Assembly (NCBI GenBank): GCA_016748015.1
Contig: JAAOMT010000028.1
Coordinates: 1-64,000, forward strand
Direction of reading: 5' to 3'
Source of the DNA: Geosiphon pyriformis uo1
Taxonomy: Eukaryota; Fungi; Glomeromycota
DNA: 64,000 bases
Below, piece by piece: positions 5,509 to 53,738 of this stretch. Position numbers and translations under genes: made by a program. The notes under the pieces were generated by a model. That model made no database searches, had not been told where the DNA came from, and worked only from the letters and a program-made list of their open reading frames with translations. The first letter of the stretch is position 1. Each line of letters opens with the position of its first letter.

Positions 5509-5589
5509 ATTAACAAAAAAGGGTGTATTGAAAGAAATAACTTTAAGACAAAAAAGGGAAAAGGAAGAAAAAGAAGACTATTCTATTAA

Positions 5590-7986: not shown

Positions 7987-8017
<31 letters not shown>

Positions 8018-17937: not shown

Positions 17938-19742
17938 ATGAAGAAGACTGCTAAAGTTTCTGGTTCTAATGATGGCTTCAAATCTGTTCTTCCAAGGAAG
18001 AAAAGGAAAGATGATGCTTTAAAAGATAGTTCCAGTGGTAAGATTGTTGGTTCTAAGATTCAGAATAGTCGTTCATGGAGTTCAGAGACTGGTGACACCA
18101 CTAAGTCTGATAGCATTGACATGGAGAAAAAATGTCTGGTGGAAGAAACTAGTTTCCAGCAAAAAAGTGGAAAAAAGTCTGATGGTATTAATATTGATAT
18201 GATGCCTAAAGATTCCAAAAGAGTTGTTATCAAGCATACTCTTGGAAAGCCTCTTGGCACTATTAACTTCGGCATGGATAATGATAATAATGATGATATT
18301 TTGGATGGGTCACTTTTTTTCCCTCCCCCTCTCTCTTTCAAACATATGGTGCAGGTTTCAGTCAGGAAATCTTTTACTCTGGATATTAATCTTGGGATGG
18401 TGACTGGCAAGTTGTCTCAGAAAAAGTTAGCTTATGTCAAAAAATTTTTTCTGGTGTAAATGGTTTTGGGGGGACCTCTACCCCCTCAAAATTTGGTGGA
18501 ATAATTCAGGCTTCTTTTACTTCTAATAAGCCAATGATGGCTGCAGCAAAATTAGCAAATGATTATAGTGTTGTGGTAAACACCAATCTTAAGCACCCTA
18601 ACAACAATCATATGAATCAGGCAATTGTGTTGAAAGAAATTCCAGTGAGAACATCTGTGGAGACTGTGTGCATGACTGTGTCTGAATTTGGGGTAATTAA
18701 AATAATCAAAATGCAACTGGTAGGTTTGTGGCAGAAAGCAATCATTGAATTGGAAGATTAGAATTAGGCTGATCTATTAGCTGCCAAATCATCCATCCTA
18801 ATTGGAAAAGATGTGGTACGAGTGGCCAGAGCTGACATTGACAAACAATCATGAGATGCTCAAGATAGTTTCAGAGCTTTGCTGTATACTCTCCCCATAG
18901 GAACTACTGCTCATGATTTGTGAGATTTTATTGGTTCTGTTGGTGGGAAGATCTGCTTCATTGATCATAATTCTGTCAATTATTTTCATGCCCACTGTGC
19001 TACTGTGTGCTTTAACTCTGAGTCAGATTTGGTTGGTGCTATGACAGTAACCCCAGTTATAAAGGGTGTTAGTCTTTGCTGGTCTCATCTCTCTTAAGCT
19101 TTATGTGCAGTTTGCAAAGGTTTTGGTCATATATCTCTTAGTTGTCAGTCAGTTAAGAATGCTGTGGCTCCAGGTGGCAGAAAAGCTCCTCTTTCAGCTC
19201 AAGACCAGTTCAGGTTGGCTAGAATTTATGCGAAAAAGTCTGCACCTATTTCTTGTTCTTTGGCTTTTGGTAGTAAAACTTGGGCATTAGTGGTTAGTGC
19301 TCCTCCTGTGCACACTTCTCATGATGCTGGTATGTCTCTTGGTTTCAATAAAATTAGTGAACCCCTTTCTCTGGTTGTAGACAACTTGGAATCATGTTTG
19401 GTTGGTATTGAAAACAGTCTTGTTAGTCTCATAGAACAGATTAGTGAGTTGGCTAAAAGATTGGAATCACTCATGCTGGCAGTTTCTCAGTCTAGTCCTG
19501 GATGTTAGCTGCTGGTGGCCCCCCCATTACAGAATCAAGGAGAGGATATAGTGATGGGAATGGGTTTGAGTGAAGCCACTAGTGATAAAATTGTTCTGAT
19601 TGTGGACTTGACAGCATCTTTTTATGTTGTTAAACTGGAAAAAATGTTGGATGGTCTTTTTAGGTCTGTGTTAAGCTTGTCTGCTTGCTTCAATAGTTTG
19701 GCTTTGGCTGATGGTGCCACTTTCCTAACTTCTTCTCAATGA
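17938..19742 (+). pseudogene. LINE B ORF1, degenerate
   Basis: AIVLKEIPVRTSVETV...SEFGVIKIIKMQLVGLWQKAIIE; CAVCKGFGHISLSC knuckle ~19105-19145; ends SSQ-TGA overlapping the ORF2 ATG. Confidence 0.85.
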
Positions 19743-21570
19743 GTGATCTTGTGTGAAGAATTACTACATGCAATATTAGAGGTATGAATATTCCTGCAAA
19801 ACAGAATAATATTGTATAATGGCATAAAAATATAGACAATTTGGTTTCGATTTTCATGAAAACAAAGTTAAGAAATAAGACTCGTCCTTGATTGGTTGAC
19901 AAATTTGATAATGTTTGCATGTTTTCTTTTGGTTTGGACTCTGGCTATGTGGGTGCTGGTATTGTGATTTTTATAAACAAATTCTTGACTAGACATGTGT
20001 ATAAAGTTTCTGAGGTTCTAAGTTATCTTCTCTGCATTAGGTTACTTTTCAAAAATAAACTTTCAATTTCGATTTTGGGGCTGTATGCTGGTGCCTTCTT
20101 GGCTACTCAATTTTCCCAGGCTGATAAGATCAATTTTTTGATTGTAAGAGCTATAAATGAATCTTCTTTTGTCATTCTTGGTAGTAACTTCAACAAAGAT
20201 GGTTCTTATAAGTGCATTAGTTTTAAAAAATGCCATAATTTGGGTTTGATTAATTCTTTGGGTGGGAGCTTCTTTGCTAAGACACCAACTTAGAGCAATT
20301 CTCAGAATGTTGCCAAGACAATTGATTATGTGTTTGTTTTCTCAAATCTGGTGAATGTAATAATGCAGTGCAATGTTTTCATTGTCAGTGAACATTTTGA
20401 TATGGATTACAAAGCTGTTTCTGTTTCTTTGGGTTTAGGTGGCCTTTTAGATGTGAGATTAAACTCTTTCTGCAAATAGGCAAATAAGGATCAATGGAAG
20501 TTCAATTTTAAGAGTGCTGATGAGATTAAATGGAATAATTTTAAAAGTTCTACACTAGCTAATGCTACAATGTTCTCAGATGAATTCACTGCATCTGTAA
20601 AGTTTTCGGATTTGGATGCTATATAGTGTGTTGTGTGCAAAGTTATAACTCTTTTGGTTAATGAAATTTTCAAAAAAAAGTGGTTCAGAAGGTTTAATAA
20701 AGTTTTTACCAAAGATTCTTCAAAGTTTCATAAATTGAAGCTTTTGGTTTCTAGGATTGTTAAGGCTTTACGTAAAGAAAATGCTGAAAACTTTGTTTAT
20801 TTTATGAAATATTGGAGTTCTGTGGATGATGTCAAGTTTTCTGTTGTTCAAAATCTGGTGGACTCTGGTGCTGGTTCTAATTGTGTTCATTTTGCTCTTT
20901 TTGGTGCTAAGAAGTCTTATCATGCTTTCAAACTCACTAAATCTCTAAGAGCTAAGGAAGCAAACATCAGATCTGCCATTAATAGGAGGATGGAGAGCTT
21001 TGAGATCAACAAGGGTCATATGATCAGAAGTGTGCTAGAGTGTCCTTTTCATAAAGTAATGCTGGACCATTTGGTGGTTAATAATAATCTGGTTTTGGAG
21101 TCTGATTTGGTTAAGTCTAAAGTGGATGTAATCATAAAGAGATAGACCAAAAAGTGTCATGTGGCTGATGATATCTCAATTGATTGGCACCATCAATATC
21201 AATCTTTGGAATATGTTTTTGATAAGGCCTTTTCTGGTGTAATATGCCCAATTGGTTTTGATAAATTCTTTGAGGTGGTTTCTGAATTGCCTAATGACAA
21301 AGCTGCTGGTTTGTCTGATATCTCAAACAAACTTTGGAAACATTGTGATAAATCTGTTCTGGATATGCTGTTGGTGATTTTGAACTTTTGTTTGTCTGGT
21401 GAATTGGTGTCTGGCCCTTGAAAAGAGGCCTGGGTCTTGATAATTCCTAAACCATATGAATGGAAGGGTGTTTTGACCAATACTTGTCCTATTGCTTTAA
21501 TCAAAATGGCTTGTAAGATTCTTTCTGACAGGATATTCTTGATATGTAGTGCTTTTGATGTCCTTTATGG
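19739..21570 (+). pseudogene. LINE B ORF2 part 1 (APE endonuclease to RT N-terminus)
   Basis: MSDLV*RITTCNIRGMN, FMKTKL, ILGSNFN, TIDYVFV, KAAGLSDI, TNTCPIALI. Confidence 0.9.
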
Positions 21571-22421
21571 TGTTACTCATAGAATATAAGAAATATAGTA
21601 TTATTAATTAATAGAGATTAGCCAATCAGATGTAGACGTAGTAAATGTGAAATTCCAAGATTTCTCTTAGAGGAATTGCAGAATTCCAGGAATTTCAGGA
21701 TTCTCTAACAAAAAATCGCAGAATTCCAGAATTCCAAGATTCCTCTCATCAGGAATCACAGGATTCCAGGAATTCCAGGATTTCTGTCACAAGGAATTGA
21801 GGAATTGAGGAATCTCAAATAGGTATATATAGCAATAGCATTAGAAGCAGAAAAAAGAGGAGAAGAACATTAAGAAATTTTAGCTTAGTTATCACAATTC
21901 TCAAATAAATAATTATTCACTTTATCAAATTCATTCTTTACTATCAACATGAAGTGTTGATAGTAACTGATACTTAACCATACTGGAACAATAGCTCTTA
22001 ATCATGGCTATTGATGGGATACTAACTTGCAAATTGTCTTGGCTGATTTCTTATTTTCTTTTTTATCTTTCTTTATTTTCTTTGTTGTCTACTAACTTGA
22101 TTAAAGAATTTACTCTTGGAGGACTTATGGAGGAATAAACTTGCTTAAACAATACTTACTCTTGGAGGACTTACGGAGGAACTGACATCAGGAAACAGTA
22201 CTGGTATACACTTATGAAAAATATCATACCAGGAGAATCATCAACTCTCAAGCTGAACAAGCAATTGAGGAAACTACTGATAAACTGTTATCATTGAATC
22301 TCTGTCCATTATACAAAGAACTCAATTGAAAAACCTTCAGATTATCATTGTCACCAATCACTTTGTGCACCAAGTTATGGGTTTGTTACTTATTTGACAC
22401 CCCAAAGATTCATCTGTAACA
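21571..22421 (+). repeat. E1 5' LTR (851 bp)
   Basis: TGTTAC...GTAACA termini; CCAAT box ~21622, GGAATTCC-type tandem array, TATATATA ~21824. Confidence 0.95.
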
Positions 22422-22483
22422 TTTGGTGCTCCCTATAAGATATAATCTTACAGAGAACTAGCACCAACAAAAACAAACCAAAA

Positions 22484-25400
22484 GTGGCAAAATCAGAAAA
22501 TATAGGAGCAAATCATTTAGGATTCGCAAAATCCTTATTTCAACAATACAGCCAATAATTAGGATTAAACAGTAATCATTACCCAGCCAAATCAGCTTTT
22601 AACTTCTATGTCAACGACAAAATTACTGAATGCTTAGAAGAAACAGTTAACATTGAAGCAGCAAGAGAAAACTTTTACACAGAATTATTCCAACACACCA
22701 ACTTACCAAGAAACTATAGTTTCACACTAATAATCAGAGAAATCAACCAAACTATTGAAAGATACACTCAACAACAATTTTTTATCACCTACGCAGATAA
22801 AGGCAAAGAAAGGTTACAAATACTAGCAGTAATGCCTAAAAAGATACAACTACCAACCTGAAAGAAACAAAGAATTGAATTCCCACCATATTTATCATAT
22901 CATCACACACTTGGAAGCACTATCAATATTTCATCTGCAGGCATGTCCACACCAAACGCAACATCAACATTTGGACAATTCATATTCCAAAGTAAACAAA
23001 GAAAAACAGAGTTATTAGGACCATATGGAGAATATTTTGAGAGATTTAAATCACAATCACCAACGCCATTAGGAATTTGATCACCACTATCTCTACCAGA
23101 TTTTGGAATCTCTGATCCATGGGAGGTAATGGAATCAGAAAAAGAAGAAGAAGAAGAAACTGAGGATCAAAAATTCACTTACCAGAACCTGATCACTGAA
23201 AACCCGGAATTTGAAACCCCGAATCTTCAGAACCAGCAAAATTTAAATTTAGTAAATTCAGAAGTTGAAACTCTGAATATTCAGACACCACCAACTCAGG
23301 ATAATCAAAACCCCAATCTAATTAATCAACCAAACTTACCTCCAGTAATTATTATCAATCAATCACTAATTGATATAATAGCTGAACCCATACAGCAGCC
23401 ACTTCAACTGCCACCTTAACAAAATCAACAACTGCTTCAACAGCCACCACAACCACCCAACTTAGATCCAATGGCCTATGCACCAATCACAAAACTGGAT
23501 AATTTTACCAGCAAAGAAGACGACACTCAAGTATGGCTAAATGATGTGAAAAAAGCCATCATAGTCAACGGATGGAATGACACCCAAGCAATGTAAGCCA
23601 TTCCCTATTTTCTCAAAGATACTGCTGATTTATGGTATCAGAGCTTGATCAATAAACCACAAGACTTCAATGTCTTCAAAGTGGAATTTTTAAGATACTT
23701 CAGCAACAATAACAGTATCAACCGCCTAGTTAATATATTCACTACCATGAAGCAAGGAGAAACTGAAGCAATTACCACTTATCTGGGATGCTTTCATAGA
23801 AATCTGCACCAAATCCAGGCAATTAACGTCAACTATTTTACAGCACCACAGATCCTCAACCAGTTTATCCATGGCCTGCACAACAGCATCTTGCAACATG
23901 TATGCCTATTGCATCCAGGCACCCTTCAAGATGCAGTTACACATGCCAGAGATTTCGAATTAGTTGAGTCTGAGACCAACCATGCCCAAGCCATTAATCT
24001 AGTGATGAACAGATCATTTGAATTGGACTCCAAATTGAAACAATTTAGTGATTCAATTAATCAGAAATTAGAAGGATACTTAACTGACAATTGCACAATT
24101 TATCAACCACCTCAACAATACAGCAATTCAAGAAACTACAATTGTTCCCAAAATCAAGCACATCTCTTAATATTGGCCAATCAGCAGTGGCAGCCAGAGA
24201 CGCATGTCTGCCACAACTATAGTAAACAAGAGCACATCAGAGCAAACTACAATGCTTATAACCACTAGTGATCAGGAAATCAATATAGAAACTCCGATCG
24301 CCAATTTCAAACTTTGAGATATCAACAAAATCAGGAACAATATCAAAACACTTACCTGTCAATGACGCAGCAGCCAATTTACCAAGCACCAGTATATCAG
24401 ACTCCAGTTTATCAACCATAGCCACCAGCAATATATCAACTACAGCCACCCATAATATATCAACTGCAGCCACAAGTAATCTATCAACCCCAATCAATTC
24501 AGACACCACCCCAAAATTCAGTTAATACAACATCAGACCACCCCAGACTTAGAATCACACAAAACTGAAGATCAGCAATGGTTGTCCATCAACTGATCCC
24601 CAGTTCTTCCAACTCACCATCAGGATTGCATTTGTGGAATTCGGGTACTAGTGCCACCCAAAATCCGAATTCCCAGAACTATTTAAGTCTACTGATTACT
24701 CCAGAAGACACCACCACCAACAATTTAGAATCCAACCAACAACAAACACTTACCAACAACATTCCACCAGCAACTGTTACCAATGACAAATTGCTTGCAG
24801 CCATCTTTCTCTTCGACTTGAAAGAAATGATCAAAATTTTATTATTCAGTGGAGCAGCTCTGGAAAAGAAGCCAATTACCACCATGTATACAGATGCCAA
24901 AATTGATGGCCATGCCATCAAACTGATCTTGGATAGTGGATTAGCTGGCAGCATCATAACAAGACAACTCATGGATCAATTAGGTTGCTGAGTTGACCAA
25001 GCTGCCAGTGCAAGGATCATCACAGCTGATAGAGCAATCAAAACTCCAATAGGCAAAATAGACAACCTACCTATTGAAATTAACAGCATCATGGTACCCA
25101 TTAAAGTTCTTGTGATGGAAGCCACTCAGTATCAAGCTCTTGTTGGAAATGATTGGCTATCCAAAACAAACACCATACTCGATTGAACGATGCAAGAGCT
25201 CCAACTGAGCCAAAACAGTCAACATACTTAAGCACCAGCAGTATGCAGCCACTTTAAACCAACCAATTTGCAACCACTAATCAAACTTGAGGAGGAAACA
25301 AAGAAACCAACATAGGAAGCATATTAGGTTTCATGGGCCGACATCGACCACAATGAACTGCTGCCCATACTTGTCTGGGATGAAGATGACCATGGAAAAG

Positions 25401-28400
25401 GAAAGCAAAAAGAAGAACATACCTGAGAAACCACTATTGGCACTTGAATTAATGACAACCAAAACGAGTTGTCACCTACACTAAGTTGGGAAGAAAAAAG
25501 AAAGGGAAAGAAAAAAGAAAACAACCTACCAGAGAAAACTGAATTAACAAAAGACACCACCAGTGGCTGGACAAGTTTGTATTTCATTCATGAGCCACTG
25601 CCACAACCACCACACATACTGCTTAAATACAAAAATTGTGAGAAAAAACTCTCTTCTATGGAAGCTTGGGTCACACCAGACAAAAATTACTGGATGCAAA
25701 CCCACTATTATTACAAGTCTTGCCACTGCAAATGGTATGACTACCCAAAAAGACAAGACAAATGGGACAACAAACCATGTTTCGCTTGTGGTGAGCAATT
25801 GTTCGACAAAAGAATGTGGAACAACATTCCTGGTTGAAAAGAAACATACAACACTTTGTGCCAGTACACAATTCTCATCAGCAACTGGGTGAGTTGAGGT
25901 ATGCCAATAACTGCCACTTGGCACTAAGCAATCTCTCACCTGGACGGATACCCACATGACAAAGATGAGATCTGGCAGATGGCGAACGCCAAAATAGAAG
26001 ACACTATGTCCAGCAAAATCTTGGAAATCAAGAACAATTCTCCAAAACCAGTCAACATTATTCTAGTCCCCAACTCAGATGCTTTTTTCGATATTGAGAC
26101 CAACCCAGAAGACTTCTACAAACATTATCAAAATTTAGTACCAACCAGAGAGGAACAGAAAGAGTGGTTAGCACAACTAAACACTCGATTATGTGACTAC
26201 TGTTTGATCTCATGTGACTTTCAATATTGTAATGAGTGTGATCTCATTTACAATCCACCAATCCACATAATCTACACAATTCCAGAGGAAGAAAAACCAA
26301 TCAGCAGCTGCACATTAAAATCAGAACCACTGTTTGATCCCGATTTAAACTCTGACAATGACAATAATGAAAACACCAGTTCCAGTTTTGTTCAAAATAG
26401 TGATAACAATGACAATGATTCAAACTCAGATTCAAACTCCAATTTAAAATATGAACAATATATCACAATTCTTAATCTGACCAGAGAATTGAAACTAAAA
26501 TAGTTTAGTAATAATAACGAAGGTATCATGCCAGAATGTGCACACAATAATGATGCTGGATTTAATCTGAGGTATCCAAGAAAAGATGCCATCAAATTGA
26601 AACCACATTCATGTATCTGTCTTGATTTGAAAATAGCACTGGAAATTCTGACAACAACAATGGTTCAATTAGCATCTAGGAGTAGTTTAGCGAAAAGAGG
26701 GATTAATATAAAAAGAGGAATAATTGACATTGGATATGTAGGAAATATCATCGCTATGCTACAAAATGACTCAGAAAAGACCTATATAATAGAGCCCAAT
26801 AAAAAGATAGCACAGACAATATTCCTGCCTCTGGTTAGAGTAGCTCAGTTAGTATCAGTAGAAAAGAGAGAGGAATTAGGAATAACAGCAAGAGAAATAC
26901 AGGGATTCGGATTGACAGGTAAAGTAGATATACCAGTCAATATAGCAAATGAAGAAATTGTTGACCAAGGGGAAATTATCTCAATGGGTCAAACAATTTC
27001 TATTCCACCATATGACCAGTACATGATAGGAATAAAGTGGGAGGTAAAAGAACAGAATCAGATTTTTGAAGCAGAACCAACCCTCTGTAAATCAAGAGAG
27101 ATTGGACTCATCAATCTCCATATACCAGTCAAAGATTACAGTCACATCAAAATTCCCATCTACAATAATACAGGAAATATCATAGTAATATCAGCTGAAA
27201 CCACCATTGAATACTTAAGCACTGAAATAGAGGATCAACCACCAAGCACCATTCTGGACTTTCCACAGCTTTGTGGATATGTCAATATTATATCACAAAC
27301 AATATATGGACAAAGTAAATGTTATTTGCTCCAACCAGAACAATTGGAACAAATAAACATAAGAAACTTAGATCCACTCCAACGTATGCAACTTAAAATG
27401 TTGCTCAACAATTTCAATGACATCTTTGCCAGCGAAAACGAGTTTGGCCAAACTAACATCATCTAGCATCAGATCAAGACTGGAGATACAATGCCAATTA
27501 AACAAAGAGCATACAAAGTACCACCAGCTAGCCACAAGATTATCCATCAAGAGATAAACCAAATGCTTAATAATAGGCTAATTCAGCCATCAATGAGCCC
27601 ATGGTCATTACTAGTGGTACTCATCTGGAAAAAAAATGGGAAAATCCACTTTTGTGTGGATTATAGAAAACTCAATAGAGTAACTCATGGAGATAGTTAT
27701 CTCACTCCACAGATCCAAAAATTATTTGATGCTTTCGGTAGAAACAAATAGTTTTTAACATTAGACCTGGATAGTAGTTACTGGCAAGTAGCCATGAATT
27801 CAGCCAACAAAGAAAAGACGGCATTTACCACCAGAGAAGGGAATTTTGAATTTAAAGTAATGCCATTTGGCTTAACCAATGCACCAGCCACTTTTCAATG
27901 GCTAATAAAAATTGTTTATACTGGCTTATTATGGAAATCAGTAGTTGTATACTTGGACAACACCAATGTATTCTCAAAAACATTTGATGATCATCTTCAT
28001 CATTTTCAACAAGTGTTTGAAAGACTAAGAAGAGCAGGACTAAAGTTAAATGCAACAAAGTGTTTTTTCGGCAAGACAGAACTAAAATTCTTGGAACACA
28101 TAGTCAGCAAAGACAGCATCAAAATAGATCCAGAGAAAATAGAGATAGTAAAAAACTTTCCAGTACCAACCAATATGACAAAACTGAAATCATTCTTGGG
28201 ATTTGCCAGCTACTATTGATGTTTTATCAAGAACTTTTCCAAGATAGCACAGCCACTCAACCAACTGCAAACCAAGAATACAAAATATGAATGGACAGAA
28301 AGTCAACAAGAAGCTTTTGATATTCTGAAAAGAAAGCTCATTCAAGCTCCAGTACTGATCTATTCAGATCACAGCAAACCATTTATCATCACCACCGATG

Positions 28401-28753
28401 CATCCGGCCAAGCACTAGAAGCAGTACTATCTCAGAGAGGACCAAATGGCAGAGAATATTCAGTAGCATATGCCAGCAGAGGTTTAACACCAGCCAAAAA
28501 GAACTATAGAACACTGAAACAAGAACACTTAGTAATATACTGGGCAGTCATGAAATAGAAAAAATACTTGAGCCAGAAGTTTGAAGTATACACAGATCAC
28601 AAAGGATTAACATCACTTCAAAAACAAGAATTTGGAGATGGAAGACAGTCAAGATAGAAAATGGTACTCACACCATATAATTATACTATACATTATAAAA
28701 AGGAAAAAGACAATGGAAATGCTGATGGTTTGTCATGAATGAGACAAATATAA
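22484..28753 (+). pseudogene. E1 ORF1 polyprotein: Gag-PR-Cys-rich-dUTPase-RT-RNaseH (~2090 codons, one frame, point-mutation stops)
   Basis: ORF-track fragments 23129, 23645, 24578, 25469, 25979, 26528, 27491 and 27794 share one frame. Motifs: LILDSG, dUTPase motifs, CVDYRKLN, MPFGLTNAPATF, YLDN, TDAS, ADGLS. Confidence 0.93.
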
Positions 28754-28815
28754 GAACATTTCAACCCAAAAATATAACAAAACCAAAACATTACCAACAA
28801 TAAATATAACAAAAG

Positions 28816-30198
28816 ATAAACATACAAAGATATTAACAACTGCAACATTATATAAACACTCAACAATTTAAGAAGAATTTATCTCAAATGGAACGAAAGA
28901 GTATCAAACAACAATCAAAATATTTTATCACTCACCAAAATATACTTTATTGAAAAAATAGAAGAGATCTAAAGCAACCAACCAGAGTAATTACAGAGCC
29001 AAAAAAAGAAACAATATTATTCAACATGCACTCAAATCCAACAGCAGGACATTTTCACAAAGAAGCAACCATGGAAAGAACCAAAAAGAGATACTATTGG
29101 CCATCAATGTACCCAGACATCATTCAATATGTTCAAAATTGTAATGCTTGTCAGCGAAAAGGAGGAACAAAACCCAGTGAACTATTAAGACTAATCAAAG
29201 TGAGACAACCATTTGACTATATTGGAATTGATTTAGTCGGACTATTAACAATCACCAGCAGAGGAAACAGGTACATAGCAGTAACTATGAACTATCTCAT
29301 TAAATGGCCAGAGGCAAAAACAATTCAAAGAACGGATGCAAAATCCGTTGCCAAATTCATTTATCAAGATTTAATTTGTCGACATAGATGTCCAAAGAAA
29401 TTATTATCAGACCAAGGAACTCATTTTGTGAACAGAACATTAACAGAATTGAGCCAAAGATTCGGAATTAAGAGACCACTATCATCACCATACCATTCAC
29501 AAACCAATGGATTAGTCAAAAGATTCAACAGAATATTGTGTAAAGCAATAGCTAAGCTCAGCCAAGAAAACCAGAACAATTGGGATTTGTTGATACCATC
29601 AGTACTATTTGCTTATCAGACAATGAAGCAAGATACTACACAAACAACACCATTTGAATTAGTATATAGTAGAACAGCAACACTACTAGTGGAAATGAAA
29701 GTCAGCACATACTCAACTGAACCAATAACAGAAGAGAATTTCAAAAACACATTGTTGAGAAGAACATATGACTTAATGAAAACATTAGAAAACAAACAAC
29801 AAAAAGCAGCTGATAACATACAAAAGTCACAAAAGAAACAAAAAGAAAGACATAATAACCAACTATCAGATAAACCAGTTGAATTCAAGATTGAAAACAA
29901 AGTACTACTACATCGTACCAAAGCGAAAAAACAATGGAATGGAAAATTTGACCTCAAATGAGATGAACCATTTTATATAGAAAAAATTCTAGGAAATGGA
30001 GCTTACAAATTAAGATTAAATAACAAAATCTTGACCAAAGCAGCACATAGAAATTGACTGAAATCATATTACCATATAGTATCATCATCCACTAGTAATA
30101 TTCTACAATTAGGAGTACAGAGAATACTAGTCCAACCAGATGAGATTCCACAAGATCTGGAACCAATCATTATTATTAACAACAACACGTCCAATTAA
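28816..30198 (+). pseudogene. E1 ORF2 integrase (HHCC, DDE core, C-terminal GPY/F-like region)
   Basis: MHSNPTAGHF...CNAC; IGIDLVG; LLSDQGTHF; QTNGLV. The start has decayed to ATA (ATG in E3). Confidence 0.92.
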
Positions 30199-30221
30199 TT
30201 AACAAAAGAATATATAAGAAC

Positions 30222-30881
30222 ATGGTCAATGTGACAAAAAAGATCAGAAAAATGGAAATTACAGACAATATCTATTCACTAGTCCAACAAATTTTTCAAT
30301 TAATCCAACACCAAGAGATGGAAATTACAATCAATTAACAAACCATTCATTACAAAAATACAGCAAAGATACCACAAAACAAAGCATAGAAAAGACTTGG
30401 AAATGTTGTTGACAAGATCATAACCAAGATAAAATTGGCCATAAAAAAACAACCAATAGTCAGATTACACCAAAAACTTACCAGAGAAACTTGGACTTGG
30501 TGAATGCAACAATTTCCAAAAAACTATTGTCATTTCCACTTGGAACAACACGTAAATATCCAGAATTTGTACACTGACAAAACAAAATGGTTATTTGACA
30601 CAACAATACTGAGACAACTGAAACAATTTATGGGAAAAAACAATCTAACCAGACAAGCTCGAGCTATTTACCGGCTATATATGGAATTTCAAGACTGATC
30701 AGAAATCTTACTCAACACAGCAATGAATACAGTTACGAGTAATCAATTAGAAAAAATGACCAACACCCAATTTGAAGAACTACAAACTGAAATAACACAA
30801 GTAATACTCGAAAAAGAAGTTCAAGAAATAATTCAAGAAGGGGAATTAAAGAAATTAGATTTCGATGGAGCTCAATATTAA
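30222..30881 (+). pseudogene. E1 ORF3, unknown 220-codon protein
   Basis: ATG to TAA of 660 nt with internal transition stops; homologous to E3 52175-52834 and E2 34179-34898. Confidence 0.8.
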
Positions 30882-30894
30882 AAGGAGGGAATAA

Positions 30895-31768
30895 TATTAC
30901 TCATAGAATATAGAAAATATAGTATTATTAGTCAGTAGAAATTAGCCAATCAGATATAAACATGATAAATGTGGAATTCCAAGATTCCTTTCAGAGGAAT
31001 TGCAGGATTCCAAGAATTTCAGGATTCTCTAACAAGGAATTGCAGGATTCCAGAATTCCACTCATCAAGAATCACAAGATTCCAGGAATTCCAGGATTCC
31101 TGTCACAAGGAATTAAGGAATTGAGAAATCTCAAATAGGTATATATAGCAGTAGCATTAAAAGCAAGAAAAAAAGAAGAAGGACATTAAGAAATCTTAGC
31201 TTAGTTACCACAATTCTCAAATAAATAATTATTTATTCTATCAAATTCATTCTTTACTATCAACATAAAGTGTTGATAGTAACTGATACTTAACTATACT
31301 GGAACAATAGCTCTTGATCATAGCTATTGACAGGATACTAACTTGCAAATTGCCTTGGCTGATTTCTTATTTTCTTTTTTATCTTTTTTTATTTTCTTTG
31401 TTGTCTACTAACTTGATTAAAAAATTTACTCTTGGAGGACTTATGGAAGAATAAACTTGCTTAAACAATACTTACTTTTAGAGGACTTATGGAGGAACTG
31501 ACATCAAGAAACAGCACTGGTATACACTTATAGAGGATATCATACTAGAAGAATCATCAACCCTCAAGCTGAGCAAGCAATTGAGGAAACTACGGTTTCA
31601 GGAAACTACTAATAAACTGTTACCATTGAATCTCTGTCCATTATACAAAGAACTCAATTGGAAAACTTTCAGATAAAATACCTTCAGATTATTATTGTTA
31701 CCAATCGCTTTGTGCACCAAGTTACAGGTTTGTTACTCACTCGACATCCCAAAAACTCACCTGTAGCA
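30895..31768 (+). repeat. E1 3' LTR (874 bp)
   Basis: Direct repeat of 21571-22421; termini decayed to TATTAC...GTAGCA. Confidence 0.95.
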
Positions 31769-31772
31769 ATGG

Positions 31773-33230
31773 GGACAATTTCTCAGTTTTAAAGGATATG
31801 ACAACTCAATCTCCTATTTTTATAATTGGTTCAGTGATAAAAGATGCTTTGGAAAAAAACCAAGAGCTCTGGCTGATTCTGTAGGACATGCAAAAAGCAT
31901 ATGATTTGGTTGGCTGGAAACATCTCAAAAATAGTTTAATTAGGATTAAGATGTGTAGCAAATTCATTCATTTTTTTGGCAACATTCACAATGATTGTAC
32001 CAACTGGATTATAACAGATTTTGGTTTGACAGATGGTTATCATGTACATGATGGCCTGAATCAAGGAGAAGTTTTCTTTTCTCTTTTGTGGTGAATATTT
32101 TATGATCCTTTGTTGTGTGAAGTCAAGTATTAGGAGAGTGTATGTAGATATAGACTGAATTCTTATTTTATTTCCAAGAATGGTCATGCCAAATCTTGGG
32201 CTGGGCATTCTTCCTTTTTTGCTGCTGGTGTTTTTGTTGATGATACAATTTAGATTAGTAACAGTTAAAGCACTACTCAACATATTCTCAATGTTGCCAG
32301 TGAATTTTTTCAGATCAATGATATCTCAATTAACAATAACAAAATAGTGACAATTCCTATTAACAGCAGGGTCAGCAATCTTTTTCTTTCTATTAGTGGT
32401 TTGCCTATTTTAGTTGCCAAAAAGGAGGAGTTTCATCAATACTTAAATATTTTTCTTTCAACTGAGGGTCTTTCTAAACCTAGTTTAGTAAGGGCACATT
32501 CAAATGTTCGTTTTTTCACTAATTTGGTACTGAGAAAAGCTGTCTCGGATAAACAGTTCTTGTATTTGGTTTTGGCAGTTCTTCATCCTATTGTTAGCTA
32601 TAGAACACAGTTTAGCTTTGTTTCTGTTGGTGTGTACAACAAATGGAATGCTTTAATTTGCAAGGGCCTAAAACTAAAATTTGGTCTTCCACTGGACTTT
32701 CCTAATGATACAATTTACCACCCATCTTTTTATGGTTTAAAGTCTTTTTTGCAGTGTCAATCTAAGGGCAAAGTTGCTTTACTTGTTAGTTTTGCGAACT
32801 CTGGTAGAATTTTGGGGCATTTGTTTGGTCACAGGTCTCATAACTTACAGGTCCTGTGTTGGCAATCTGTTTATCCATTGATTTTCTCTGCTTGTATTTA
32901 TGTTAATGTTTCTAATAATTTCTTAGCTGGTATGGTTCACATTTTTTTTGACTACAAGTTGTCTTTGGGCTGGCTCTGTGGCCAGTTTTTTTCAGTTTTA
33001 CAGTGGGGTACCTATGTCAATTGTTCTTGGCAAGTCTTTGTTTTGCAAGTTTTTATTTTCTCTCCGTTATAGCATTGCCTTTGTGAACCAGCTTTATGAT
33101 TGTAATGGTATTGTCTTTAGCTGGCACACCTTTAAGTGATAGAAGAGGCTGGACTCTTGTGGTCCAGTTCCCAAATGGTTTGAACTTTCTGTTGTGTTTC
33201 TTGTGGCTTCTTATTCTTTTCTATTGGCAT
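31773..33230 (+). pseudogene. LINE B ORF2 part 2 (RT core)
   Basis: DMQKAYDLV, GLNQGEV, VFVDDTI; continues VLYG|DNFSVLK in frame across E1. Confidence 0.92.
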
Positions 33231-34210
33231 TGTTACCAAAGGTTTTTGGTCTCTTCTTAGCTCTTGTATGTTTGTTGTAATGTTGTTAATTTACGATTAT
33301 GGGAAGTGTTTGAACCTCTGATAACTGAATTTATCTTCAAATTATCTCTTATAATTTGAACTGCTGGACTTATAAGTGGAATGGCCAATTCCGTGCCAGT
33401 TACTTTGTATAGTTATGTTGTAGTAAATGTCAACTCTTTCTTGGAAATTGCTCATCTAAAAGCTCACTAAAAATGTGTAGTTACTTTGCTGTGAAAGTCA
33501 ACTCTTTTACAGGAATCTCGTTTATAGGCTACCCTAATAATTGTAATAAGAAAAGAAAAAAAAAATAAAAAAAATGTAAAAGAAATAGGATTTTATCAAA
33601 GAAAACGTTTTCTATTCAGGCCTGGAGTTACTAACAGTTTACTGAAATTAGTAGCTAATCAATTTCAAAATGTTAATTGGGTTTTGAAGATTTTTCTAGT
33701 GCAATAATTTCAAGAATTTGGTTTTTCGAATTATTTAATATTTATTTCTTTTTGTGTGTGTAGGAATGGTTTTAAGTGATAAATCCAAAGTAAGATACAT
33801 TTTCTCGAAAAGAGAAGCTTTTCTTTTATACAACTTGTTATAACACTATTCTATGCACTTGAACTTTGCTCTTTTCTACAATTTTGCTGAACTAAAGATA
33901 CATTTTGGTGAATTACAAGTTATTTCTGTGAACTATTAGATGTTTCGGTAAACTATCAATTATTTCAGCAAATTTCTACAAATTTCGGTGAACTTTTGAA
34001 TGTTACATATTTCGGAGTATTGCATAATTGATCATCACACTTAGGTTACATTTATGTTATATACAAATTGGGTTATTAGTTAAATGATAATTTCAGACAT
34101 TTTGCTAATGTAATAAGTAATAATTTGAAACAATAATATATGCTAATTAATGATAAGATTTATAAGGGTAATTTTATGCTAAACAATATCTCTAATTTTG
34201 TCTGATAACA
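33231..34210 (-). repeat. E2 3' LTR (980 bp)
   Basis: Direct repeat of 42076-43056; TG...CA termini. Confidence 0.95.
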
Positions 34211-34898: not shown

Positions 34899-35017
34899 TA
34901 TAAGGGATTTGAAAATAAAAGAAAATTATTTTTGGTGTATGGGTTTTTATGTTATTTTTGTTTTGTATTTGTGATATTGTTTCTAAATTATAAGGAGATA
35001 ACTATAATAAATTTAAG

Positions 35018-36403: not shown

Positions 36404-36449
36404 TGTTTGTTGTTTTGTTGTTAATTCAAATGGGTGTTGTTTTTATGTT

Positions 36450-39400: not shown

Positions 39401-42030
39401 TACAAGCTTTCATTGACAATAGTTTCTTGTGGCAGTCCTTACATTTAAGGAGAATGTAGGGGTGTTGTTTCCTTGGTTCAGGCTTTGAGTAAGGGATATT
39501 CCATTCAGGAGTTTCAGGTTCAGAATGTGAAGTAAAATGTTTTTGTTCAGTTTCCTCAGCCCAATTGGACATTAATCCAAGAGCCATGAATGTTTTGATT
39601 ATTGGTTTTTCTTCTTCTGGTTCGAATTCAAAAGCTGGGGCTTTTTCGGAGTGTTTGTTGAATGTATCACAAATGGCAGGTACTCGGGCGTGTTGTTTTT
39701 GGTAGGGAATTGTTAACTCTTGTGTCTCCCAATTCAGATTAGCATTGGCTTTTTGGAGCCAATTGTTTTTGACAAGAGCTTGGTATTGGGGAGCATCCAT
39801 GACCAGAACTTTGACTGGAATGGTAATTCCATCAATTGTGAATGAGAAGTTGTCAATCTCTCTTACTGGAGTCTTTTTCATGCCATCAGTAGTGACAATG
39901 ATTGTCTGAGCTGGTTGGTCAACATTTCTCTTTAGCTGCTGCATCAATTGATATGTAATGATGCTTCCAGCAGATCCACTGTCTAGGATCAAGTGAATTG
40001 GCTTTCCTTCTACTTTAGCTTCTGTGTACATTGCAGTAATGGCTTTTTGCTCATTAGCCGCTGCATTGCTAAGCAAAAATGGTAATTCATTTGCTTCAAA
40101 TTTGAAAGGAAATATATCTGAAAGATTGGCTTTTTCAGCAATTCTGGCTGGTGGGATTGTGGTAGAAATATAGGAAGGGTTTTGTTGTTGTGTTGCAGCT
40201 CTACTTTCTGAGAATGCAGTATGGTGAAAATCCTGTTCTTTAGGTATTATAAGATAGCTAGGTTGAGTATGATAATGGGTGGATCTTGGCTGAACTGGAT
40301 TTCAGAGAATCAATTGGTTGTTCGAATTGATTCTATTGTTGTTTACTTGGTATTGGTTTTGTGATGTAAATTGATTTTGCGGAATCAATCTTTGAGCAGG
40401 TATTTGATAATGTTGTGTGAGTGGTTGTTGGTATTGCTGTTGAATTGGCTGTGGAGCGGGCTGATAATAGTTATTTTGGTATTGGGATCTTGGTAGATAG
40501 TAAGCTGGTAGTGGTAGTTAATAATAAGATTGCTGTGGTAGAGGGTAACGTTAATTACTCTTATTTTGTTGGTCTCATTGTAGCTTTCTGCAATCTTTTT
40601 TCCAGTGGCCAGGAATTTTACAGTAATGGCAAATCTGAGACTGGTTATTAGAAGATGATATAAAGTTGTTTTGATTCTGTTTTTGGGGTGGTTGATATCT
40701 TTGGGGTTGCTGTTGTTGTTGGTTAGTGAAATAGTTTTTGACTTTCTTTGCAAGTTGGTCAATTTTTTCTTCAGCTGCTGAGCTGGTTTCTCCAATGGTT
40801 AAGTTCACAAGTTTTGTACAATTGACTTCTTCTATGGCCATTTCATATCTTTTTGCATGCTGAATAGCAGAGTTTAAATCTTCTGGCACATGTGAACGAA
40901 CCTTTTTAATCAGTTTATCTTTTAAGCCAGTGATAAATTAATCCAAGATTTGAGCATCAGAATAATAATCAGTAGTTTCAAGTTGGCGAATTTGTTTGAG
41001 AAGTTTGTTAAATTTCTCAATATAAGTCATGACAGATTCAGAGGGTTCTTGTTTGATATTGTGAAAACAATTCTAAGAAGGCAGTTTTGAAAGCTGTCCA
41101 GTCATTAAAAGGAGTGATCAAGTTTTCAAACCATTTGCCTGCGGTTCCTTTAAGAAAGTAGGGAATTGTTCTTAACATTCAGGCAGCATTCCATCCATTT
41201 GCATCTCCAGCTTTAGTAACTTGGTTGAGCCATTCTTGAGGACTGGTCTTAATGTTTTCTTCATTGAATTCAGGGATTTTTGCAATGTATGCTGTCATTT
41301 CATCTTCTTCATTTTTACTGTCTATTTATTCTTTTTCAGATATTTCAGAGTCATTTTCTTCGTTCACTGCTGTCTCAGAGTGTTCACTTTGATTTTTAGC
41401 TAGAAAGTCAAGGAGATTAGAACTAGTTTGAAGAAGTTTTTGTTGTCTGATGGGACTTCTGGATAATGTAAAATCTTCTAGTCTTGTAAATCGATTTAAG
41501 GGTGAATTAGGTGTTTGTGCTTGTGCAAGTGAAGCTGGAAAAGATGTGATAGTAAGTGGAAGTTTTGAACTAGTTCCTTGTTCAGGTGTTTGTAAGTGTT
41601 TGGCAGTTGTTTTTGGTAGTATTGGAGTATTTGGGGTGGTTTTTGAGTATTGCTTCAATTTTTGTTTGCCTTTGTTGCTTGTTTCTGTCTCTGATTCAAA
41701 ATTAAAAGAGTATTTAGACTGTACTGGGTATTTTTCTTCACAATATTCAATAATGTTAAAATTAAGTTCTTGAAAGTAGGTAGCAAGTGTTTTACTGTTC
41801 AGGTTTTCTGTTTTCAATTGTGAATAGTGCACTAAATTATTGTAGAGGTTGCTTCTAACTTCTGAAATGTTTTAGTTTCCAAAAAGATAATTGTTGATGT
41901 GGTTTTCAATGTATTGGTATACTGATTTTTTGACAACTTCAATTCCGTCTGGAATGTTGAATCTTTGCTTGTAGTGTGTGTAAATTGACTGGTAATACTC
42001 TAAAGTTACTGTGTTTGGTGTGGTCGCCAC
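36450..42030 (-). pseudogene. E2 ORF1 polyprotein Gag-PR-Cys-rich-dUTPase-RT-RNaseH
   Basis: CHYCKIPGHWKKDC knuckle, LILDSGSAGS, DAGYDL/GGIIDAGYTGDI/RGTQGFGSTG, LDLESGYWQV, ATDAS. One frame from ~40889 to 36450, with small indels in gag. Confidence 0.93.
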
Positions 42031-42075
42031 TTTGAATTTGTTGTTGCTGTGTTATTTCTGTGGGAGAGCACCAAA

Positions 42076-43056
42076 TGTTACTGAAGGTTTTTGGTCTCTT
42101 CTTAGCTTTTGTATGTTTGTTGTAATGTTGTTAATTCACGATTATAGGAAGTGTTTAAACCTCCGATAACTGAATTTATTTTCAAATTATCTCCTATAAT
42201 TTGAACTACTGGACTTATAAGTGGAATGGCCAATTCTGTACCAGTTACTTTGTATAGTTACATTGTAGTAAACGTCAACTCTTTCCCAGAAATTGCTCAT
42301 CTGAAAGCTCACTAAAAATGTGTAGTTACTTTGCTGTGAAAGTCAACTCTTCTACAGGAATCTTGTCTGTAGACTACCCTAATGATTGTAATAAGAAAAG
42401 AAAAGAAAAATAAAAAAAATGTAAAAGAAATAGGATTTTATCAAGGAAAACGTTTTCTATTCAGGCCTGGAGTCACTAACAATTTACTGAAATTGGTAGC
42501 CAATCAATTTCAAAACGTTAGTTGGGTTTTGAAGATTTTTCAAGTGCAATAATTTCAAGAATTTGGTTTTTCAAATTATTTAATATTTATTTCTTTTTGT
42601 GTGTGTAGAAATGGTTCTAAGTGATAAATCCAAAGTAAGATACATTTTCTCGAAGAGAAAAGCTCTTCTTTTATACAACTTGTCATAACACTATTCTATG
42701 TACTTGAACTTTGCTCTTTTCTACAATTTTGCTGAACTAAAGATACATTTCGGTGAACTACAAGTTATTTCTGTGAACTATTAGATGTTTCAGTAAACTA
42801 TCAATTATTTTGGCAAATTTTTACAAATTTCGGCGAACTTTTAATTGTTACATATTTCGGGGTATTGCATGATTGATCATCGCACTTAGGTTATATTTAT
42901 GTTATGTAAAAATTGAGTTATTAGTTAAATGATAATTTCAGATATTTTGCTAATGTAATAAGTGATGATTTAAAATGATAATATATGCTAATTAATGATA
43001 AAGATTTATAAGGGTAATTTCATGCTAAACAATATCTCTAATTTTGTCTGGTAACA
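42076..43056 (-). repeat. E2 5' LTR (981 bp)
   Basis: Repeated AGTTCACCGAAA-like units and TATAAAA on the minus strand; followed by the PBS. Confidence 0.95.
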
Positions 43057-43546: not shown

Positions 43547-44436
43547 TGTTACTCATAGAAATATAAAAAATATATTAGCATAATTATTAGCCAATCAGAA
43601 GGAAGCGTAGTAAATGTGAAATTCCAGAATTCCTCTCAAAAATTGCAGAATTCCAGGAATTTCAGAATTTCCAACAAGGAATTGCAGAATTGCAGAATTC
43701 TAGGATTCCTCTCAAAGGAATCGCAGGATTCCAGGAATTTTAGGATTCCTGTTGTGAAGAATCAAAGAATTAAGGAATCTCAATTATGTATATATAGCAG
43801 TAGTGTTAGAAACAGAAAAGACAGAATCGATACCACAGAATCCTTAACCTAGAAACACAATCATCAAATAAATAATTATTTCATATCTCAAATCCACTTC
43901 CCACTATCAACTCTTTATGTTAATAGTAATTGATACTTAACCATGCTGGAACAATAGCTCTTGATCACAGCTATTGATGGGATACTAATCTGCAAATTGC
44001 CTTGGCTTATTTCTTTGCTTTCTTTATTTTTCTTTTATTTCTTTTTTCTTTATTTTATTTTGATTTGTTGTTATATATACTAATTGATAAAAGATTAAGC
44101 ACTGAGTTATTGATGTCAAGGATAGCCTGGTAAAAGACCCAGAAATACAGGTAGAATTTTATATATTATCGGATAGCTTACCAGAAGGGCATGACTGCCA
44201 GAATAAATCTGGCCACCAAGCTAAGAAAAAAATTAGACATAATTGCGACTCCAGGAAAACTACTACCATCACCACTGAATCTCTGTCTATTATACAAAGA
44301 ACTCCACAACAAAACCTTCAGATCAACCAAAACTTCAGATACAGCATCTTCAGAACAGCCTCAATGGAAGTAGCTTTTGAGCACCAAGTTATGGGTTTGT
44401 TATTTAATTCAACAGTAAAAATAATCACCTGTAACA
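43547..44436 (+). repeat. E3 5' LTR (890 bp)
   Basis: TGTTAC...GTAACA termini; CCAAT box, GGAATTCC array, TATA. Confidence 0.95.
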
Positions 44437-44498
44437 TTTGGTGCTTTCTGTGAAGTATAATCCTACAGAGAACCAGCACCGACAATACCAAACCAAAA

Positions 44499-47400
44499 GT
44501 GGCAGAATCAGAAATTATAGGAGCAAACTATTTAGGATTCGCAAAATCCTTATTTCAACACTATTGTCAATACTTGAGATTAAACCACAATCATATATCC
44601 ACTGAATCAGCCTTCAATTTCTACGTCAACAAAAAGATTTCTTCTTTATTAGGAACACCAGTGAACACTGAATCAGCAAGAGAAACTTTCTATAAGGAAT
44701 TAATTCAAAACACCAACCTACCAACAAACCATAATTTTGCATCTATCATCACTGAGATCAACAAAGAAATTGAACACCACACTCAACAAAGATATCCAAT
44801 TACATATGCTAGTAAAGGCAAGGGAAAATTACAAACACCAGTAGTAACACCCAGAAAAATACAGCCACCTGCTTGAAAGAAAAACAGAGTTGAATCTCCA
44901 AGCAACTCATCCTACCACTATACACCTGGAAGCGCCATCAACATATCATCAACCAACATGTTTTCATCAACTGTGACATCAACATTTGGACGATTCCCAT
45001 TCCAAAGTAGACAAAAGAAAACAGAATTGCTAGGACCATATGGTGAATACTTTAAGGGATTTAATTCACGATCATCAATCTCATTAGGACTTCGATCATC
45101 ACCGCCTCCACCAGATTTTGGAATCTCTGATCTGTGGGAAACAGCAGAATCAGAAAAAGAAAAAAAATCAGAGGATCAAGAATTTACTTACCAAAACCCG
45201 ATCATTGAAAGCCCGGAAGTTGAAACCCCAGAAGTTGAAATCCCAAATCTTCAAGCTTAACAAAATTTAAATATAGAAAATTTGGAAATCAAAACTCAGA
45301 ATCAGCAAAGACAGAACAATCCAAAACCCAAATTAATTAATCAGTAAAACTTATCTCCAATAATTGTCATCGATCAACTGCCAATTAATCTAGTAGCCAA
45401 ACCTATACAATAGCCACTTCAACTACCACCCCAACAACTACTTCAACAGTCACCACAACCACCTAACTTAGACCCAATGGCCTATGCACCCATCACAAAA
45501 CTCGACAACTTTACTGGTGAAAAAGATGATGCTTAAGTATGACTGAATGATGTAGAAAAGGCCATCGCAGCCAATGGATGGAATGACGCCCGAGCCATAC
45601 AAGCCATTCCCTACTTTCTTAAGGATACCGCTAATTCATGGTATCAGAGCTTGGTTAATAAACCACAAGATTTCAATGTCTTTAAAGTGGAATTCCTAAG
45701 ATACTTCAGCAACAACAATAGCATTAATCACCTAGTCAATACATTCACCACCATGAAACAAGGAGAAACTGAAACAGTCACCACTTACCTGGGACACTTC
45801 CATCGAAACTTGCGCCAAATTCAAACAATTGATGATGACTATTTTACAGCACCACAGATACTCAACCAGTTTATCCGTGGCCTATGCAGCAGTATCTTGC
45901 AACATGTACATCCATTGCATCCTAGCACGCTTTAAGACACAGTCACACACGCCAGAGATTTTGAATCTGCTGAGTCAGAGGCTAACTATGCCCAAGCCGT
46001 TAATCTAGTAATAAACGGATTATCTGAATTGGATTCCAAATTGGAGAAGTTCAGTGAATCAATTAATAAGAGATTGGAAGGATACTTAGCTAACAATTAC
46101 ACCATTTATCAGCCTTTACAATGATGTAATAATCAAGGAAATTATAATCATGGCCAAAATCAACCGCATCCATCTTCATCAACCAATTAACAGTGACAAC
46201 AGGAAATGTGTATCTGCCACTATTGTGGTAAACAAGGACATATCCAAATTGACTGTCGCCAGCGTTTAAATAACCAACAATTGGGAAATCCATATTGAAG
46301 CCCCGATCGCCAGTTCCAAACTCCAAATCAGTACCCAAATCAAAACCCACCCGCTTACCTACCAGTGACACAGTCATCAGTTTATCAGTCTTCAGTATAT
46401 CAACCTCCGATTTATCAGCCGCAGCCACAAGTAATATATCAACCACAGCCACAAATAATTTATCAACCTCAACAGATCCAAACACCACCCCAAAACTTAC
46501 CACCCAACAGAACCCAAAGACCAAGAATAACTCAACAGAGCTGGAGATCAGCAATGGTAGCTTATCAACCAATCCCCAGTTCTTCACAGCAACCATCTGG
46601 ATTACGCCAGCGGAATTTGGGTACCAGTCAACCCCAGAACCCGAATTCCCAGAACTATTTAAGTCTCCTGGTCACCCCAGAAGACGCTTCAACCAATAAC
46701 CCAGCATTTACCCAAAAACAACCATTCACCAGTAATATCCCACCTGCTACTATTACCGAAGACAAGTCATTGGCCGCTATCTTCCTATTTGAATTTGAGG
46801 AAACAGCTGCAACGCCATTGTTTAGTGGAGCCGCTCTTAAAGCCAAACCAATTACTGCGATGTACACTGATGCCAAAGTTGAAGGACAATCCATTAAATT
46901 GATCCTGGACAGCAGTTCTGCAGGCAGCATAATCACAAGACAAATCATGGATCAATTAGATCATCAAGTTGATCGAGCTGCCAGTGCCAGAATCATCACA
47001 GCCGATAGAGTGACCAAAACTCCAATCGGCGAAATCGACAACTTTCCTTTTGAAGTCAATGGCATCATAACTCCCATTAAAGTGCTAGTGATGGAAGCCA
47101 CTCAATACTAAGCTCTTGTTGGTAATGACTGGCTATCTAAAGTCAATGCAACGTTAAACTGGAACACCCAGAAACTCCAGCTAACGTATCAGGGCCAACA
47201 CATACATGTCCCGGCAATGTGTGGCCATTTCAAAACTCCTCCAAGAAAGAAACTATTGATTGAACTGGAGGAGGAGAAAGAAAAGCCAACCTGAGAAGCC
47301 TACCAAGTGTTGTGGGCGGATGAAGAGCACAATGAACTACTGCTCATATTCTTCTGGGACAACAGCAACAAGGGAAAAAAGAAACAAAAGGAAGAACTTA

Positions 47401-50703: not shown

Positions 50704-50766
50704 GAACATTTCAACCCAAAAATATAATAAAACCAGAACAATACCAACAGAAAAATACAACAAAAG

Positions 50767-52150: not shown

Positions 52151-52174
52151 TCCATCAAAAAAATATATAAAGAC

Positions 52175-52834: not shown

Positions 52835-52847
52835 AAAAAGAGAATAA

Positions 52848-53738
52848 TGTTACTCATAGAAATATAAGAAATATATTAGCATAATTATTAGCCAATCAGA
52901 AGGAAGCGTAGTAAATGTGGAATTCCAGAATTCCTCTCAAAAATTGCAGGATTCCAGAAATTTCAGGATTCCCAACAAGGAATTGCAGAATTCCAGAATT
53001 CCAGGATTCCTCTTAAAGAAATCACAGGATTCTAGGAATTCCAGGATTTCTGTCGTGAAGAATCAAAGAATTAAGGAATTTCAATTATGTATATATAGCA
53101 GTAGTGTTAGAAACAGAAAAGACAGAATCGATACCACAGAATCCTTAATTTAGAAACACAATCATTAAATAAATAATTATTTCATATCTCAAATCCACTC
53201 CCCACTATTAACCCTTCATGTTGATAGTAATTGATACTTAACCACGCTGGAACAATAGCTCTTGATCACAGCTATTGATGAGATACTAATCTGCAAATTG
53301 CCTTGGCTTATTTCTTTGCTTTCTTTATTTTTCTTTTATTTCTTTTTTCTTTATTTTATTTTGATTTGTTGTTATATATACTAATTGATAAAAGATTAAG
53401 CACTGAGTTATTGACGTCAAGAATAGCCTGGTAAAAGACCCAGAAATACAGGTAGGATTTTATATATTATTGGATAGCTTACCAGAAGGGCACGACTGCC
53501 AGAATAAATCCGGCCGCCAAGCTGAGAAAGAAATTAGGCATAATTGCGACTTCAGGAAAACTACTACTATTACTATTGAATCTCTGTCCATTATATAAAG
53601 AACTCCACAACAAAACCTTCAGATCAACCAAAACCTTCAGATACAGCATCTTCAAAACAGCCTCAACAGAAATAGCTTTTGAGTACCAAGTTACAGATTT
53701 GTTATTTAATTCAACAACAGAAATAATCACCTGTAACA
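52848..53738 (+). repeat. E3 3' LTR (891 bp)
   Basis: Direct repeat of 43547-44436. Confidence 0.95.

Follow-up and report, generated by a model that had tools for sequence, protein, structure and literature searches.

A Conserved GUG Codon as the Probable Start of Gag-Pol in Three Families of Ty3/Gypsy Retrotransposons from Geosiphon pyriformis

The Gag-Pol reading frame of a set of decayed Ty3/Gypsy LTR retrotransposons in the fungus Geosiphon pyriformis very probably begins at a GUG codon. Alignments of three element families indicate that GTG is the family codon state at the 5' border of coding. We favor, with less assurance, a dual start by leaky scanning, in which a minor, GUG-started long Gag-Pol would accompany a major, AUG-started Gag-Pol.

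Results

Elements and Gene Layout

The window, meaning the whole 64,000-nucleotide stretch of DNA that was analyzed, contains three full-length, decayed, dUTPase-bearing Ty3/Gypsy LTR retrotransposons (E1, E2, and E3). Every named homolog recovered for the element proteins is a gene model of Geosiphon pyriformis, which marks the window as fungal. E1 and E3 are related, hence not independent, and constitute family A; E2 represents family B. A third family (family C) was reached via one distant match and was then collected as an independent test. The features are:

21571-31768, plus strand: E1; LTR pair 86.8% identical
33231-43056, minus strand: E2; LTR pair 93.2% identical
43547-53738, plus strand: E3; LTR pair 93.3% identical
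21571..22421, plus strand: E1 5' LTR; ends TGTTAC...GTAACA; TATA-like box at ~21824, AATAAA at ~21904
22424..22440, plus strand: E1 primer-binding site (PBS); matches the tRNA-Met(CAT) 3' end
22436-22438, plus strand: E1 in-frame stop inside the PBS; TAA, 16 codons 5' of the GTG
22484..22486, plus strand: E1 GTG, putative first start codon; context AAA-GTG-G
22484..23470, plus strand: E1 N-terminal extension; 329 codons; predicted four-helix domain (~codons 1-105), then a Pro/Gln/Glu/Ser-rich spacer; ATG-poor
23471..23473, plus strand: E1 capsid-border ATG, putative second start; M-A-Y-A-P
23471..30870, plus strand: E1 decayed Gag-Pol; capsid, dUTPase, RT region, integrase; GTG frame kept for ~2000 codons
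30895..31768, plus strand: E1 3' LTR; target duplication ATGG, 4 nt
33231..34210, minus strand: E2 3' LTR; 93.2% identical to the E2 5' LTR
41296..41298, minus strand: E2 capsid-border ATG; M-T-A-Y-I; codon 245
41299..42030, minus strand: E2 N-terminal extension; 244 codons; first 676 nt ATG-free in all frames
42028..42030, minus strand: E2 GTG, putative first start codon; sister-copy conservation
42052..42054, minus strand: E2 in-frame TAA; 8 codons 5' of the GTG; majority by depth in sister copies
42056..42073, minus strand: E2 PBS
42076..43056, minus strand: E2 5' LTR; target duplication GCAT, 4 nt
43547..44436, plus strand: E3 5' LTR; 93.3% identical to the E3 3' LTR
44439..44455, plus strand: E3 PBS; in-frame TGA at 44451-44453
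44499..44501, plus strand: E3 GTG, putative first start codon; sister-copy conservation
44499..45476, plus strand: E3 N-terminal extension; 326 codons
45477..45479, plus strand: E3 capsid-border ATG
52848..53738, plus strand: E3 3' LTR

Hallmarks of Ty3/Gypsy LTR retrotransposons are present, including paired LTRs with TG...CA ends, a target duplication (imperfect in E3, GCAT/ATGT), and a tRNA primer-binding site. Pfam domains follow the Ty3/Gypsy order (Retrotrans_gag, Ty3_capsid, Asp protease, dUTPase, RVT_1, RT_RNaseH, Integrase_H2C2, and rve), and dUTPase lies between protease and RT in each element (26504-27466, 38289-38915, and 48027-49331). In family A, the 3' ends of tRNA-Met(CAT) match the PBS in 17 of 75 loci and those of no other tRNA do; this tRNA carries G1-C72 and, by the G1-C72 rule, is presumably the elongator rather than the initiator. 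Family A thus appears to take a tRNA-Met(CAT) as its primer. Family B would use a different tRNA, its PBS having matched tRNA 3' ends at 0 of 69 loci.

Remnants of a LINE-like element (RT, endonuclease, and RNase H-like) received the insertions of E1, E2, and E3 (target duplications ATGG, GCAT, and GCAT/ATGT); they occupy positions 1-5577, 18439-21525, 31770-33222, 43065-43546, and the sequence from 53739 on. A target preference for LINE-like repeats is possible. AT-rich extremes (GC 8-12%) flank the element cluster at 5600-10000 and 55000-59000, and a host gene with calponin-homology domains lies at 60743-61411. The family-A U3 regions (21630-21815 and 43606-43785) carry short direct and inverted repeats of the GAATTCC/GGAATT type 5' of the TATA-like box, which are possibly factor-binding sites.

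GTG at the 5' Border of Coding

The preliminary description of this DNA reported that all three elements share AAA-GTG-GC and that the stretch from the PBS to the GTG is free of ATG, and both observations are borne out. The GTG of AAAGTGGC is located at 22484 (+), 44499 (+), and 42030 (-), the three leaders contain 0 ATG, and three of the six occurrences of the octamer on both strands of the window lie 43-60 nt 3' of a PBS. The GTG was also said to be in frame with gag. In E1 and E3, the frame is open for ~2000 codons bar scattered decay stops and covers capsid, zinc knuckle, protease, and dUTPase and continues into RT; in E2 it breaks after ~codon 330. Among the stops listed in the E1/E3 frame, only two are common to both elements, each at a Trp codon. 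The alignment of the E1 and E3 GTG frames over ~2000 codons, with shared stops only at Trp codons, indicates that Gag and Pol form one frame. A programmed gag/pol frameshift or readthrough was rejected, since the two common stops represent Trp-codon decay.

Conservation of the GTG extends across the families. In gene models, which are automatic predictions on dead copies, are biased toward open frames, and cannot contain stops, Val is the majority residue of the start column in family A (Val 120 and Met 11 of 136 scored models; 225 given), family B (Val 83 and Met 10 of 101; 120 given), and family C (Val 20 and Met 1 of 25; 51 given). Start-column Val decays to Met, whereas other Val columns decay mainly to Ile. 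Because G>A change makes Met only from GTG, this decay identifies the codon as GTG. In 121 of 122 family-A rows the start Val is preceded by K, T, N, or I, residues that each put A at -3; the residue after the Val is mostly Ala.

The protein is conserved after the start Val and variable before it. The N-terminal domains of families A and B are homologous at 22% identity (E 1.7e-4, probability 49%), and their starts align to within 2 residues; those of families C and A are 29% identical in exact register.

The nucleotide record of family B was followed in 942 DNA contigs covering the E2 leader, which derive from one run, perhaps the window's own source, so that depth shares are rough. Within the GTG only the third base differs at 2% of depth or more (2.2%); ATG and GCG each fall below 2% of depth, while adjacent CpG decays at 28-40%. 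A derivation of the GTG from GCG is ruled out by the share of the second base (<2%). In another comparison with contigs of this run, none of the 40 differences listed, from a total of 147, falls at the GTG, which is weak taken alone; contigs of two further runs did not align.

A Conserved ATG at the Capsid Border

A Met at the capsid border, absent from the preliminary description, occurs in all three families 244-329 codons 3' of the GTG. The first Met-majority column is 327 in family A (63 Met and 12 Ile of 75) and 244/245 in family B, and M-A-Y stands at most family-C capsid borders among those listed. Residues 5' of this Met differ by family (D-P-M, R-I-M, and D-E-M), and the family-A ATG has C at -3.

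The span from the GTG to the capsid ATG contains 7 ATGs in E1 (987 nt), 3 in E3 (978 nt), and 3 in E2 (732 nt; 0 in the first 676). The pooled density is 4.8/kb versus ~22/kb downstream; since many downstream ATGs are also decay-made, the ancestral contrast would have been smaller. With the three elements pooled, ATG is the most depleted of the 64 trinucleotides in this span (13 versus 32.3 expected) and ranks 27th of 64 downstream of it (198 versus 206 expected). Twelve of the 13 ATGs bear a decay signature, either a Met-minority column or a CpG-type decay rate in sister copies, and one, out of frame at codons 49-50 of E1, is unexplained; the ATGs now in the span appear to be products of post-insertion decay. 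Codon-order shuffles yielded only a modest, marginal out-of-frame ATG depletion per element (p 0.05, 0.025, and 0.36), and the spacer is of low complexity. A search for a hairpin 3' of the GUG found no stable one (z -1.4, 0.1, and 1.3).

Under the dual-start model, a scanning ribosome would meet the GUG in a strong A(-3)/G(+4) context, where a minority would initiate. Among near-cognate codons, GUG is described as ranking second in efficiency in general (PMC5666671). Initiation there would add the 244-329-residue extension with its predicted helical domain, in the arrangement domain-spacer-capsid-Pol. The remaining ribosomes would scan through the AUG-poor stretch and initiate at the capsid AUG. 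We infer the two isoforms and their ratio from sequence, and because the window copies are dead the model concerns active ancestors.

Family data thus strongly back the earlier proposal that Gag-Pol starts at a conserved GUG, with the amendment of a likely second start at the capsid ATG. The suggestion that GUG stands in for a missing gag/pol frameshift does not survive: both starts precede one continuous Gag-Pol frame, so that the choice between them would set the ratio of extended to plain polyprotein, not that of Gag to Pol.

In an alternative reading, the GUG is the sole start and, as the preliminary description proposed, its weakness lowers output. On this reading, which we consider unlikely, the element's own protease would cut N-domain, spacer, and capsid apart, and the capsid Met would be kept for cleavage or structure. 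All of the family evidence for the GTG fits it equally, as does the pyrimidine at -3 of the family-A capsid ATG. Retroviral Gag is laid out as matrix-spacer-capsid, and a predicted helical domain of ~105 residues followed by a Pro-rich spacer, the capsid, and a zinc knuckle would resemble that layout. However, a sole GUG leaves the depletion of ATG in all frames without a reason, ribosomes bypassing the GUG would still meet the capsid AUG first, and the capsid Met is kept though its upstream neighbors differ among families.

The Leader Upstream of the GTG

An in-frame upstream ATG with coding through the PBS was looked for in families A and B and was not found; stops close the frame in both. 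In family A, the PBS holds an in-frame stop 16 codons 5' of the GTG (TGA in most of the depth, TAA in E1). In family B, a TAA 8 codons 5' of the GTG is the majority state, and the open CAA variant (8% of depth) runs into further stops without reaching any ATG. The frame in which a family-A leader runs into the start Val is not fixed; three occur, in 70, 9, and 7 of 96 models (10 unclassed), divided partly by subclade. Family-B leaders differ by indels of 1 and 3 bases. A closed upstream frame and a leader whose length varies by single bases both speak against an ATG supplied from upstream or by splicing.

A spliced leader that would carry an LTR ATG and enter at an acceptor in the PBS-GTG interval, making the Val internal, is accordingly quite improbable. 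A candidate acceptor exists in family A (CCTACAG, just 3' of the PBS), which the gene predictor chose in many models; U5 also contains branch-point-like and pyrimidine-rich stretches and some ATGs. Yet subfamilies differ by single bases in the spacing of this AG and the GTG, the equivalent AG is absent from half of the family-B depth, no AG adjoins the codon itself in subfamilies with AAT/AAC or ACA before the GTG, and the upstream exons of the models are all different. Both LTRs of family B do carry a U5 ATG, in the GTG frame, in an upstream ORF that a TAA closes after 37 codons. At most U5 ATGs, other LTR copies have ACG or ACA, and 3' of the TATA-like box no ATG is common to all 4 family-A LTR copies. 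The motif was also considered as a splice donor (AAA/GTGGC) and rejected as off the donor consensus.

The N-Terminal Domain

The E3 copy of the N-domain is modeled as a four-helix fold spanning residues 2 to ~103 (pLDDT 77.7). Foldseek searches of PDB and viral structures returned nothing with E <0.001, the best VIA match was an unrelated helical chain (Z 7.3, rmsd 3.1, 103 aligned), and the best ESM Atlas score was 0.86, with no convincing structural match. No known family was found for the domain in Pfam or fold searches. Transversions by codon position number 6, 2, and 9 in codons 126-215, a third-position skew, and 12, 11, and 17 in codons 1-125, where the skew is weak. The TGA that E1 and E3 have in common at codon 126 could have closed a separate ORF0, but this reading was rejected, as the codon is Trp in 104 of 104 models holding the motif (models cannot hold stops).

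Relatives were not found in two metagenome scans. A search of 50% representatives returned 133 matches, and 10 of 10 looked up by name are Geosiphon. At least 181, at least 374, and at least 51 Geosiphon 'hypothetical protein' models are fragments of the three families, with heterogeneous first exons.

Initiation at the capsid ATG only, which would make the upstream frame an untranslated leader or a relic, agrees with the conservation of that ATG and with an N-domain that has neither known fold nor family. We nonetheless regard it as very improbable in view of the protein homology of the N-domain across families at 22-29% identity, the confident four-helix model, the transversion skew of codons 126-215, and a frame that is continuous into the capsid, with Trp at codon 126 in those 104 models.

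Decay of the Elements

Paired LTRs differ by transitions at 195 of 199 substitutions. The G>A bias noted earlier was confirmed, but C>T change occurs too, creating ATGs from ACG and GTG. Across 21571-53738, C>T/G>A changes make up nearly all of the decay, which extends beyond CpG (CpA/TpG, and others also). CpG in the elements stands at 0.21-0.38 of expected versus 0.91-0.97 in two gene regions. The pattern resembles the outcome of a RIP-like process in Geosiphon, or of one driven by methylation, and CpG methylation of transposons is reported for the related fungus Rhizophagus (10.1101/2021.03.30.436303).

The claim that GTG is unlikely to derive from ATG agrees with three fully listed Met columns, whose 190 residues comprise 158 Met, 32 Ile, and 0 Val. 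Met copies do not form a clade: on a quick tree of family B, the 10 Met copies require 10 changes, and on the family-A tree, 9 Met copies require 8 changes (shuffled mean 8.8). The reading that active ancestors had ATG, with GTG a product of decay or the mark of a dead non-autonomous lineage, can point to the Met minority in the models (11/136, 10/101, and 1/25), but is largely refuted and scarcely credible given that ATG>GTG opposes the direction of decay, that Met copies are scattered on the trees, that ATG is below 2% of depth in the DNA contigs, and that three diverged families agree on GTG.

Discussion

Tf1-type Ty3/Gypsy elements have a single Gag-Pol frame, and Tmt1 is a dUTPase-bearing fungal Gypsy element; to our knowledge, both are AUG-started. 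The Geosiphon elements are like them in having one Gag-Pol frame and dUTPase between protease and RT. The literature covered, from which subscription journals were mostly absent, yielded no account of a mobile LTR retrotransposon of fungi whose Gag starts at a non-AUG codon.

Non-AUG starts of retroelements are already documented in a retrovirus, a domesticated gene, and pararetroviruses. The glyco-Gag (gPr80gag) of murine leukemia virus (MLV) is described as arising from an in-frame near-cognate start 5' of the gag AUG on unspliced RNA, which yields an N-terminally extended Gag (PMC3042739). The Geosiphon elements would share an upstream in-frame near-cognate start that extends Gag, here deduced from sequence. 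They differ in codon (GUG versus CUG), in the extension (a predicted helical domain within 244-329 residues versus a signal peptide within 88), and in being fungal retrotransposons rather than a retrovirus; unlike in MLV, one uninterrupted Gag-Pol frame would carry the extension. Glyco-Gag may thus serve as a working analogue, with no membership implied.

PEG10, a domesticated retrotransposon gene, is described as being translated from an upstream CUG plus an AUG (PMC2800197), a pairing of non-AUG and AUG starts like that proposed for Geosiphon. It is likened here by start use, not by sequence, being a host gene with a -1 frameshift rather than a mobile family. For ORF I/II of rice tungro bacilliform virus (RTBV), ~10% initiation at a non-AUG codon is described, with other ribosomes scanning long AUG-devoid ORFs (PMC5902531). 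A weak non-AUG start followed by scanning through an AUG-poor ORF would be common to both systems, whereas RTBV uses AUU, separate ORFs, and shunting, and the Geosiphon elements would use GUG and an AUG-poor frame fused in frame to Gag-Pol. The Geosiphon elements would act in the manner of MLV glyco-Gag, PEG10, and RTBV, but they are Ty3/Gypsy elements and belong to none of the three. In filamentous fungi, conserved near-cognate starts of cpc-1 with A(-3)/G(+4) are described as giving an N-terminal extension, and this pair is perfectly kept at one conserved near-cognate start (PMC5487733). The Geosiphon elements share the A(-3)/G(+4) pair and would use GUG, whereas cpc-1 is a cellular transcription factor with regulatory uORFs and employs CUG, ACG, and AUU.

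The finding is confined so far to one species, and the copies are dead. The retention of GUG in three families that share no more than 22-29% protein identity is unusually clean evidence for a non-AUG start. The GUG start reveals a predicted ~105-residue helical Gag domain without a known family, and it explains the invented first exons in hundreds of Geosiphon gene models. More tentatively, the Geosiphon radiation, with three families down to 22% identity and hundreds of copies, may be one in which the GUG doses a matrix-like accessory domain onto Gag-Pol in a retrovirus-like layout (domain-spacer-capsid-nucleocapsid-protease-dUTPase-RT-integrase), its share in the particle being set by the stringency of host start-codon selection. 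If elements of other fungi behaved likewise, this would represent a widespread, unreported route to a hidden N-terminal gene in fungal Ty3/Gypsy elements, and a transposon of this kind could couple the make-up of its particles to the fidelity of initiation in its host.
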